DNA of 64,000 nucleotides from Octopus vulgaris (lineage: Eukaryota): NCBI GenBank assembly GCA_951406725.2, contig OX597818.1, positions 55,118,001 through 55,182,000 on the forward strand, in the 5' to 3' direction. Made by a program: the position numbers and the translations under genes. How positions within the stretch are numbered: position 1 is the stretch's first letter; each line of letters begins with the position of its first letter. Below the pieces are notes generated by a model that saw only the letters and a program-made list of their open reading frames with translations, searched no databases and was not told where the DNA came from. This document shows positions 2,922 to 22,809 of this stretch, one piece after another.

Positions 2922-3050
2922 CTGCAAGAACATCACAAAAAAACTGCTATTCAGTTTCATGTTCCCGTTCATTGAAGGGTCGTGATCAAGAATGCCCGAC
3001 GAACGGGAACGGGAAACTCTTAGTAGCAGTCTTTTGTGATGCTCTTGCAG
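2922..3050. repeat. Fold-back inverted repeat carrying family H2 hammerhead motifs (degenerate)
   Basis: Arms at about 2922-2972 and 2999-3050 are reverse complementary. The + arm reads UGC CCGACGA ACG-GGAA-CGG GAAA CUC-U-UAG UA GCAG. Confidence 0.65.
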
Positions 3051-9944: not shown

Positions 9945-9980
9945 CTTTCTGGTGAAGAGCATAGGCTCGAAACATAAAAG
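9945..9980 (+). ncRNA. Hammerhead-like motif, family H1 (variant core CUGGUGA)
   Basis: CUUU CUGGUGA A GAGC-AUAG-GCUC GAAA CA UA AAAG, followed by the same 3' tail as the copies near 1-1.4 kb. Confidence 0.5.
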
Positions 9981-11011
9981 ACTTTTCCATTCTTCCCAAG
10001 TGTTAAAAACTAATACACCTGTTTGTTGTTCCTGCACCAGGTCTTCTCAAGCACAGCATCTTGCCCAATGATTGAAGAGTACTCTTAAATGGGCCAGTTA
10101 TGCGACATACTTCATGATTGCATGGGTCAAACTAAATTCTTTGAGGCACTTTTTCTATGCTCAAATACCCTTCCTGTTGCTAACCCTTGCCCGTTTCCAA
10201 GCAAGGTAATATTTCCCCATGATTTGTACAGAAGATTGGAAAGGGCCAACACTTACCTACAAGCATTGTGTGATATTAAAATTAGGGTCCCTACCATATA
10301 TATGTATGTGTGTATGCTTATATATGTATATATATATATATATCCTATGTTGGTGTTGGTGCCACGTGTAATGTACCCAATACACTCTGTAAAGTGGTCA
10401 GCATTAGAAAGAGCATCCAGCCATAGAAACCATGCTAAAACGGAAAATTGGAGCATGGTGCACTTTTTAGTTGGTCAACTCCTGTCAAACCATCCAACCA
10501 TGTCAGCATAGAAAATGGACATTAAATGATGATGATATCACTTAATAAATGACAAAAGAACAAGAGTTAACAATCATTTCGTTAACTTTCAGTCGTGGCC
10601 ACCATTGCTAATTCTCTCTAATTTCCTTGTTTCACTTTGTCTTTGATGCCATTGGGATAAGCTGAAGTCAATACCAGCGATATACCATGGGTCATTTAAA
10701 TTAACTCTGCCCAACCCACTTTTCACAGCTCACCAGATTCCGACAGACTGACCAACCCATACCAGCATGGATGATGGCCATCAAATGATGACTTACAATA
10801 ATATTTTATGCTTAACTTGTTTCAGGGATGTAAACAAACCAACACCTGTTATCAAGTGTTGGGGTGGGTAGACAGGCATGAAGACACACACATCATGTTG
10901 AACTGTTAATCCATACACATTTTTTTCTATCTCCGTTATCACCCCGCTCATCCTTTTCTATCAAAAAACCTAGTCTCAAAATGTCCAAGACTTTAACCAT
11001 TCTTCCTGAGT

Positions 11012-17566: not shown

Positions 17567-17602
17567 GTTTCCGAAGAAGAGCGTTTGCTCAAAACATTAA
17601 AC
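17567..17602 (+). ncRNA. Degenerate hammerhead motif related to H1 (CCGAAGA core, GAAA mutated to AAAA)
   Basis: GUUU CCGAAGA A GAGC-GUUU-GCUC AAAA CA UU AAAC. Confidence 0.45.
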
Positions 17603-17695
17603 CACCTTTCTTTCCTTCCCTGAGCATCTGCTAATACTTCACATGTACCACGTCCTCGCATTGCTGTTTTTTTTTTGTATGTGTGTGTGTGTGTG

Positions 17696-20750: not shown

Positions 20751-20794
20751 GACCACTGATGAGGTCACAGAAGTGTGACGAAAGAACTCTGGCC
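20751..20794 (+). ncRNA. Type I hammerhead ribozyme motif, family H3 (intact core)
   Basis: GACCA CUGAUGA G GUCACA-GAAG-UGUGAC GAAA G-AA-C UC UGGCC: stem I 4/5 bp, 6-bp stem II, minimal stem III, CUC cleavage triplet. Confidence 0.75.
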
Positions 20795-21029: not shown

Positions 21030-21067
21030 TCTTTTATGTTTCGAGCCTACGCTCTTCGACAGAAAGA
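21030..21067 (-). ncRNA. Hammerhead-like motif, family H1 (variant core CUGUCGA), within a repeat at about 20933-21140
   Basis: Minus strand reads UCUUU CUGUCGA A GAGC-GUAG-GCUC GAAA CA UA AAAGA. Confidence 0.55.
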
Positions 21068-21520: not shown

Positions 21521-22307
21521 TATATATATATATATAAGCACTGGGGTTGATTCGATTGACTAAAAATCTTCAAGGCAGCGCTCCAGTATGGCCACAATGT
21601 AATGGCTGAAACAAGTAAAAGATGAAAGGCAAAAAATAAAAAAAAAACATCGCATAAATGTACATGGCTACGTATGTCTCAATAAATGAATGTGTGTGTG
21701 TGAGTATTTGTCCCATCATTCGTCTGTGTGTGTGTGTATGCGTTTGTACACGGTCGTACATTCAGACAAAGACACAACATTATTTATTCATACACATTTA
21801 TTCATACACATTTATTCATACACATTCATGCAACTACCAAGTCCATAGACAAATATGTAAATACATACACATATACACACACGTATACATACGTACGCAG
21901 TCCACTTTCTGATCAGGCGGTTTACTAGTCAAACATGTAAAAAGCGTCGAGAGTTTCTTTCTGTGAAAGACGAGAGAAAGTATGTTAAAATGAAATAGTT
22001 TTATTTGCTTGGCAGTTTTCATTCATAAAAAACATTTACATTCATAAAATTTATAAAAAGAATGTAGGTCTTTGTACGCCTTGCTTTCTCTTGCAGTTTT
22101 CTCTGTTCAGTAAGCTCACCCTTGTGTATACAATACAAACTTTATACACATGTATCTGCGTGTGTTTCTGTCTGTCTGTCTGTATATAGCATATATGCAT
22201 ACATACATACATACATACATACATACATACATGCATGCATGCATGCATACATACATACATACATACATACATACGTGTGTATGTATATATATATATATAT
22301 ATATATA

Positions 22308-22542
22308 CCGGAGTAAACACATAAATGTGAAACAAGGTGGAAAAAAGAGTACTCAAATACCAGTGGTAGAGTAATATGCTTTATTTAAAGTAGCAGAAAA
22401 TACAACAAAACCTGTTACTCTGAGTTTCACGTTCCCGTTCGTCGGGCAGTTTTTGCTAGAAAAAACTGTCCGACGAACGGGAACGTAAAACTCAGAGTAA
22501 CAGGTTTTGTTGAATTTTCTGCTGCTTTAAATAAAGCATATA
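22308..22542. repeat. Fold-back element in (TA)n with two divergently oriented family H2 hammerhead motifs (22412-22449 minus, 22466-22503 plus)
   Basis: Near-perfect inverted arms at 22374-22454 and 22461-22542. Consensus of the arms is CUGU CCGACGA ACG-GGAA-CGU GAAA CUC-A-GAG UA ACAG. Confidence 0.8.
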
Positions 22543-22562
22543 TATATATATATCTATATATC

Positions 22563-22594
<32 letters not shown>

Positions 22595-22607
22595 AAATAT
22601 ATATATA

Positions 22608-22809
22608 CTCTTTTACTTGTTTCAGTCATTTGACTGCGGCCATGCTGGAGTACCACCTTTAATCGAACAAATCGACCCCCAGGACTTATTCTTTGTAAGC
22701 CTAGTACTTATTCTATCAGTCTCTTTTTTGCCGAACCACTAAGTTACGGGGACGTAAACACACCAGCATCGGTTGTCAAGCGATGTTTGGGGGGGGGGAC
22801 AAACATATG

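Follow-up and report, generated by a model that had tools for sequence, protein, structure and literature searches.

A head-to-head pair of Penelope-like element 3′ ends with C4 hammerhead motifs in the genome of Octopus vulgaris

The window analysed here is a 64,000-nucleotide stretch of Octopus vulgaris contig OX597818.1 (positions 55,118,001 to 55,182,000). At 22308..22542 it contains a structure that an earlier note, made from the letters of the sequence, had described as a near-perfect hairpin of about 170 bp set amid (TA)n, with one hammerhead-shaped motif per strand and a CCGACGA core. That description has been confirmed. The two arms (22374-22457 and 22458-22541) are 84 nt each, meet with zero spacer, differ by 5 mismatches, are bordered by (TA)n on both sides and both carry CCGACGA. 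The predicted fold of 22300-22550 has a minimum free energy of -142 kcal/mol (z -22), and 0 of 200 shuffles folded equally well. The hairpin consists of two head-to-head copies of the 3′ end of a Hydra-clade Penelope-like element (PLE), with the following features.

22284..22307: left (TA)n target tract
22308..22378, minus strand: one-sided PLE tail of about 70 nt; 3′ ends are concentrated at +71 and +140 relative to C3
22374..22457, minus strand: tail-bearing arm, the 3′ end of the Hydra-clade PLE, starting about 14 nt upstream of C3
22412..22449, minus strand: type I hammerhead motif with C3 and C4 at 22445 and 22444 and a C-A mismatch in stem I at 22446; cleavage is predicted after 22416
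22454..22461: head-to-head junction, with a CTAG palindrome (22456-22459) and a G/A mismatch (22455, 22460)
22458..22541, plus strand: tail-less arm, a second copy of the same PLE 3′ end, running into (TA)n
22466..22503, plus strand: type I hammerhead motif with C3 at 22470 and C4 at 22471; predicted dead owing to G12A at 22487, the cut nominally falling after 22499
22538..22588: right (TA)n target tract
2927..3037: a degraded pair of the same lineage and of older date, also joined head to head, with a C4 core; its plus arm has a compensatory stem I pair (CUGC/GCAG)

The tail at 22308-22378, absent from the earlier account, belongs to the PLE and is found on one side only. The CTAG palindrome is part of the native element, where it occupies positions -14 to -11, upstream of the motif. 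Native element sequence on one arm accounts for the G/A mismatch in the middle of the hairpin. An assembly artefact is an unlikely source of the hairpin, since a pattern combining junction and tail has 406 exact matches genome-wide, junctions vary and arms are unequal at other loci, and opposite-strand joints at 22452-22453 are present in contigs of all four sequencing runs checked. The 3′ end of the family has also been found in sequencing-run contigs under three species labels. Taken alone, the locus is ordinary debris, a twin PLE stub. Repeat copies at 22609-22790 and 21569-21622, which we take to be SINE-like, lie in opposite orientations and flank the hairpin at about 1 kb.

The canonical CUGANGA core, with U4, is absent from both arms of the hairpin, which have C4 instead. 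As had been proposed, each arm bears a distinct defect. The minus arm places C2.1 opposite A1.1 (G at 22446), and the plus arm has G12A at 22487, by which it departs from the type I hammerhead core. These defects are private decay of a single copy, as G12A occurs in 6 of 123 arms with a GGAA loop and C2.1 in 4 of 123, and both arms are intact in 47 of 92 pairs. The consensus offered by the earlier note is indeed the majority sequence of the locus's own subfamily, and this majority retains the three-stem junction with G8, A9, G12, A13, A14, the A15.1-U16.1 pair and the NUH triplet. The G10.1-C11.1 pair is missing, with A opposite U, G, C or A, a feature common to many published Hydra motifs. 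The stem III sequence ACUC-A-GAGU had been thought unable to close a one-nucleotide loop comfortably and able to pair between two copies; the pairing is borne out by prediction (-7.4 kcal/mol), but Hydra PLE hammerheads, as published, normally have just such a one-nucleotide loop. The monomer hammerhead fold has a low predicted probability in all four motifs tested and is the minimum-energy fold in none. Predicted folds likewise support the idea that a read-through transcript would mask the ribozyme, an outcome expected because the antisense arm is transcribed first in read-through of either strand. Together with G12A and the stem I mismatch, this order of transcription leads to the prediction that the hammerhead of this stub is inert.

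The assembly comprises 2.8 Gb in 227 contigs. A DNA search of it gave 883 candidates, of which 40 were scored, most of them with an adjacent inverted partner. The autonomous partner for which the earlier note had recommended a census was found as a 727-aa open frame (P0001; L076:5219-7399) about 1 kb upstream of the same PLE 3′ end. It reads as a reverse transcriptase (RT) with a C-terminal GIY-YIG endonuclease in a single ORF, with the motifs FDIIDFYP, PMG, YRDD and GVVY..YTG; searches of P0001 against Pfam and PDB sequences returned zero matches. Hydra-clade elements are distinguished by RWK, DKT, CxCX5C, CxxC and CxH motifs and by insertion into (TA)n, and their N-terminal GxKF/Y is described as not conserved (PMC8557442). 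In P0001 the five motifs occur at residues 53, 129, 578, 683 and 711, and a GNKY is seen at residue 67 of the unaligned sequence. Insertion into (TA)n is preferred across the loci of the family. On the strength of the protein motifs and this target preference, the element may be assigned to the Hydra clade.

In tandem coding copies the tail runs straight into the ORF region. The locus that encodes P0001 (G000:C1:64213600-64223100) is a four-motif tandem plus inverted array, in which one unit is uninterrupted and the inverted unit is frameshifted; its tail leads directly into the open frame, whose first Met is residue 17. In the subfamily of the hairpin itself, which has a GGAA loop and a central A in stem III, no ORF was found in range of the loci examined; the link of this subfamily to the ORF therefore rests on its 3′ UTR, which is 78-90% like that of the coding C4 copies. 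At L003, L027, L036, L052, L100, L200 and L296, copies of the family have nearby ORF remnants of a more distant, Hydra-like kind (27-36% identity to P0001), and L036 contains a U4 motif with the same stem III.

The C4 core was considered by the earlier note to be a family-fixed variant, with a CUGACGA consensus or loss of the stems across the genome as evidence against it. In the same stem III context, exact matches number 5,663 for C4 and 4,966 for U4, with 0 for the reversed controls, so that C4 is not universal. U4 pairs are spaced both about 53 bp and 3-4 kb apart. Among arms from loci chosen by patterns that favour intact motifs, and which do not give genome proportions, C4 is present in 118 of 123 GGAA-loop arms and in 88 of 93 older GCAA arms, whereas in the youngest subfamily U4 is found in 110 of 113 arms and C4 in 0 of 113. 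The variant is thus inherited and not a product of decay, but it is fixed per subfamily and not in the family as a whole. It is also carried by coding copies, being present in 13 of 13 readable motifs at L202-L215 (L206 has no motif in range), where the ORF pieces are mostly 81-95% identical to P0001; L201 has T4, and at L284 a C4 motif lies directly upstream of ORF residues 1-185. The claim that C4 is common to all readable copies of the family in the window (the third at about 2991-3030) and to a further motif at 17567 is correct as to the base, but the latter motif is a member of another, unrelated family.

Midpoint rooting of a tree built from 137 tail-bearing copies yields a ladder leading from C4 (9% divergence) to U4 (1.0%). 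It starts with C4, C7 and a GGAA loop, the centre of stem III being U (9%), then C (2.5%), then A (1.5%, the subfamily of the hairpin), after which GCAA, U7, G11.1 and finally U4 (1.0%) appear; subfamilies near that of the hairpin differ little in age (1.0-1.5%), and their order rests on the tree. Given this ladder and the U4 core of published Hydra relatives, the core appears to have passed from U4 to C4 and to U4 again. Along the master lineage the motif changes at N7, the N of the loop-II GNRA, the stem III centre, 11.1 and position 4 only, with no change elsewhere in the core or in the base pairs of stems I and III (rough P 0.003, with the free sites chosen post hoc). The flanks differ among old subfamilies while the hammerhead motif persists. 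Two hairpins, one C4 and one U4, each with matching arms, are separated by 700 bp at a single locus (L050, G000:C1:4678567-4679376).

Double hammerheads and a dimer-type stem III are already known (PMC8557442, PMC4209133, PMC6765202). Hydra PLEs as described in PMC8557442 share with the octopus element the five protein motifs, (TA)n, a one-sided tail and a 3′ hammerhead in which stem II is flanked by one additional base on either side and stem III is a 4-bp palindrome closed by a single nucleotide. ACUC-N-GAGU is a published form of this stem, and the stem I and stem III arms of Hydra-2_aMil are identical to those of the octopus motif. The hammerhead list of that source comprises 26 rows and 25 families, all CUGA, as its descriptor required; the additional bases around stem II and the palindrome in stem III recur in most of the listed motifs, and the stem III loop is often one base long. 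In contrast to these elements, C4 dominates the older octopus subfamilies, stem II is shorter (2-3 bp with a GNRA loop), the tail measures about 70 nt as opposed to 30-40, and the 3′ UTR is about 1 kb. An inverted 5′-truncated copy with a second hammerhead on the opposite strand has already been published for Penelope-13_HM, and PMC8557442 presents the formation of inverted PLE insertions as an unresolved question. The curated Hydra-1_Obim is a different family, and its hammerhead differs. The minimal dimeric PLE hammerheads of PMC4209133 have in common with the octopus motif the type I topology, the pLTR site and a palindromic stem III suited to dimers; opposite-strand pairs 100-700 bp apart and low in vitro activity are reported there. 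Unlike them, the octopus motif lacks the G10.1-C11.1 pair and has a C4 core, and CCGA in the supplement file searched for that source gave two matches, both outside the core. The same core change is known from a viroid hammerhead, reportedly slower in vitro and sufficient in vivo (Ambros and Flores, 1998, via PMC3088659), where it is a variant, whereas in octopus C4 is the majority state of thousands of retrotransposon copies in several subfamilies. A literature search found no paper on a C4 PLE hammerhead, although Lunse et al. (2017) could describe one.

The junctions bear on how the twin copies were joined. A hand tally of 100 listed of the 406 matches, read with the tail on the right, gave the centre forms G..C 45 times, G..A 33, T..C 22 and T..A 0; G..A and T..C are mirror images, and in the same 100 none of these three forms is confined to C4 or to U4, the U4 class having 21 G..A against 9 T..C. 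By script, 30 loci gave 15 G..C, 12 G..A and 3 T..C. Of 88 unselected pairs, 85 have exactly one tail. The tail-less arm is the longer in 22 pairs and the tail arm in 18 distinct pairs, while 72 are within 10 nt, in a tally from which 526 of 639 rows, mostly (TA)n noise, were dropped as unclassified and in which L075 and L219 are one locus. Some tail-less arms are longer by about 1 kb (L074, L071), and the arm junctions form a continuum up to kilobase arms. In 81-88 of 92 pairs the two arms carry the same bases at diagnostic sites, and arms with two linked subfamily differences are seen at L006, L017 and L025. Outside the hot spot, 12 of 33 junctions have a 1-3 nt overlap, 5 are blunt and 16 are gapped; with a chance expectation of 48% at >=1 nt, microhomology there is not clearly above chance. 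L234, L237, L239, L256 and L263 represent older subfamilies in which the palindrome immediately upstream of the motif is TTAA or AATT and not CTAG, and their hairpins join at those palindromes.

The explanation to which we attach considerable confidence is that twin 3′ ends of a Hydra-clade PLE were joined head to head in (TA)n, likely in one insertion and from two separate cDNAs. The PLE protein would cut (TA)n on both strands and prime a cDNA from each of the two ends; the first would begin at the tail end and the second about 70 nt earlier. Both would extend to the RNA 5′ end and then anneal via the CTAG palindrome, and repair or replication of the flanking G-A mismatches would yield the G..C, G..A and T..C centres. 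Joining of two cDNAs is preferred because each core class shows three centre forms, the longer arm may be the one with or the one without the tail, and mixed-subfamily pairs exist. Junction palindromes of this sort have been read in print as the result of self-priming (PMC3846280), in which a single cDNA or an antisense template would fold at CTAG and copy itself; both the palindromic hot spot and the agreement of the arms at diagnostic sites suit it. Such snap-back nevertheless seems improbable here: starting from the tail it cannot yield a tail-less arm longer than the tail arm, as seen in 22 of 40 asymmetric pairs, it predicts no G..A, which accounts for 33 among the 100 listed, and it leaves the mixed-subfamily arms unexplained. 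In an Anolis Poseidon PLE, two internal RT start sites define the tail, and both target strands are cut and extended in vitro at an AT-rich target (PMC11167929). That element belongs to the Poseidon clade and not to Hydra, and as far as consulted the source does not take up the joining of inverted products. The junction data from octopus fit the two-cDNA model and fit self-priming less well.

It had also been suggested that the hairpin is a fold-back retroelement. Its retroelement origin stands, but the hairpin is most likely a by-product of insertion by an ordinary Hydra-clade PLE and not an element copied as a unit. That it is a non-autonomous MITE- or retrozyme-like unit that transposes whole, and functions as a masked ribozyme switch or a supplier of dsRNA, could draw on hundreds of near-identical copies with the same centre (406 matches) and on a very stable fold, but is to be regarded as highly unlikely. 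The three centre forms recur per core class, both arms are usually of one subfamily, and the continuum of junctions up to kilobase arms would be unexpected. The locus itself is a single head-to-head pair, tandem monomers of the retrozyme type were not seen in the loci examined, and the sequence upstream in longer copies is PLE 3′ UTR and ORF.

A separate matter is whether the C4 motif is catalytically dead and has been retained for a different role, for instance as an internal promoter a little downstream of the start site or as a place where the PLE protein binds, with U4 regained through neutral CpG decay in a master copy. This reading touches the ribozyme step alone, is compatible with the twin-insertion origin and has a substantial chance of being correct, if short of an even one. 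U4C considerably reduces activity in vitro (PMC3088659), hammerhead mutants had no effect on PLE insertion in vitro (PMC11167929), Penelope has a known internal promoter (PMC2377424) and Naiads thrive without hammerheads; moreover, C4-G5 is a CpG and stem II has only 2-3 pairs. Against this, the rest of the core and the pairing of stems I and III are conserved throughout the master lineage (the rough, post hoc P of 0.003 given above), the stem I and III arms match those of Hydra elements from coral and sea cucumber, and the U4C viroid variant is active enough in vivo (PMC3088659). In the preferred reading, the hammerhead would matter in the source pLTR RNA, where it would likely act as a slow, dimer- or protein-assisted cutter that tolerates C4. 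The Anolis hammerhead is protein-assisted and dispensable for insertion (PMC11167929).

The short arms may bear on the RNA 5′ end from which such cDNAs would run off. Among copies chosen to reach -17, 19 of 30 GGAA and 5 of 30 GCAA copies stop there, a position that is ambiguous with -16, as AT may derive from the target; at loci not chosen for their junction, 33 of 68 arm ends fall at -24 to -1. The RNA 5′ end would accordingly lie at -17 or -16, likely at the A 17 nt upstream of C3, where the sequence presumably resembles initiator and downstream elements. Penelope has an internal promoter in its pLTR (PMC2377424). Priming in the upstream pLTR of the transcript would give run-off cDNAs of about 85 and 155 nt. 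Stalling of the RT at the folded motif is an alternative to run-off as the source of the short arms.

Most deserving of further attention are the junction statistics and the C4 core, which appears to have persisted for long, arisen twice and reverted. As a tentative proposal, which we hold with less than even confidence, a PLE lineage ran on a U4C hammerhead over many subfamilies, a second family evolved C4 independently and the first reverted to U4. C4 would be a tuned-down state gated by dimer or protein, possibly with an overlapping internal promoter, and the stubs would record double-ended target-primed reverse transcription in which two RNAs give two cDNAs that run off at the 5′ end and are joined at the palindrome. 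If true, the joining of two cDNAs would explain the origin of PLE inverted repeats. Inverted PLE insertion is made testable by junction forms, symmetric arm lengths and mixed-subfamily arms, which separate two-cDNA joining from self-priming, and the purpose of the hammerhead by the matched C4 and U4 versions of one motif that the genome supplies in successive active subfamilies. Descriptors that require CUGANGA would miss over half of the copies (5,663 of 10,629 exact matches).

Other hammerhead families are present in the window. No hammerhead family was named among 150 listed of its 191 Rfam matches, and the Rfam miRNA matches were rejected as microsatellite noise. The motif at 17567-17605 represents an unrelated family with a 4-bp stem II, A7 and a C4 core, in which C4 is found in 8 of 25 exact matches and, with a wider pattern of 236 matches, in 50 among 100 listed. 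A hand tally of the same 100 by loop gave 32 C4 against 14 U4 with GTCT and 0 of 16 C4 with NTAG, which points to a second, putatively independent C4 subfamily tied to the GTCT loop. No P0001 match was found near this family at 10 loci and in the window. A canonical CUGAUGA hammerhead of another family, with a 6-bp stem II, lies at 20756-20790 on the plus strand. Finally, a hammerhead-like repeat with a TAG-type loop II is present in four copies (1062-1095, 1349-1382, 9946-9997 and 21032-21065), and the full core is kept in the 1379 copy alone.
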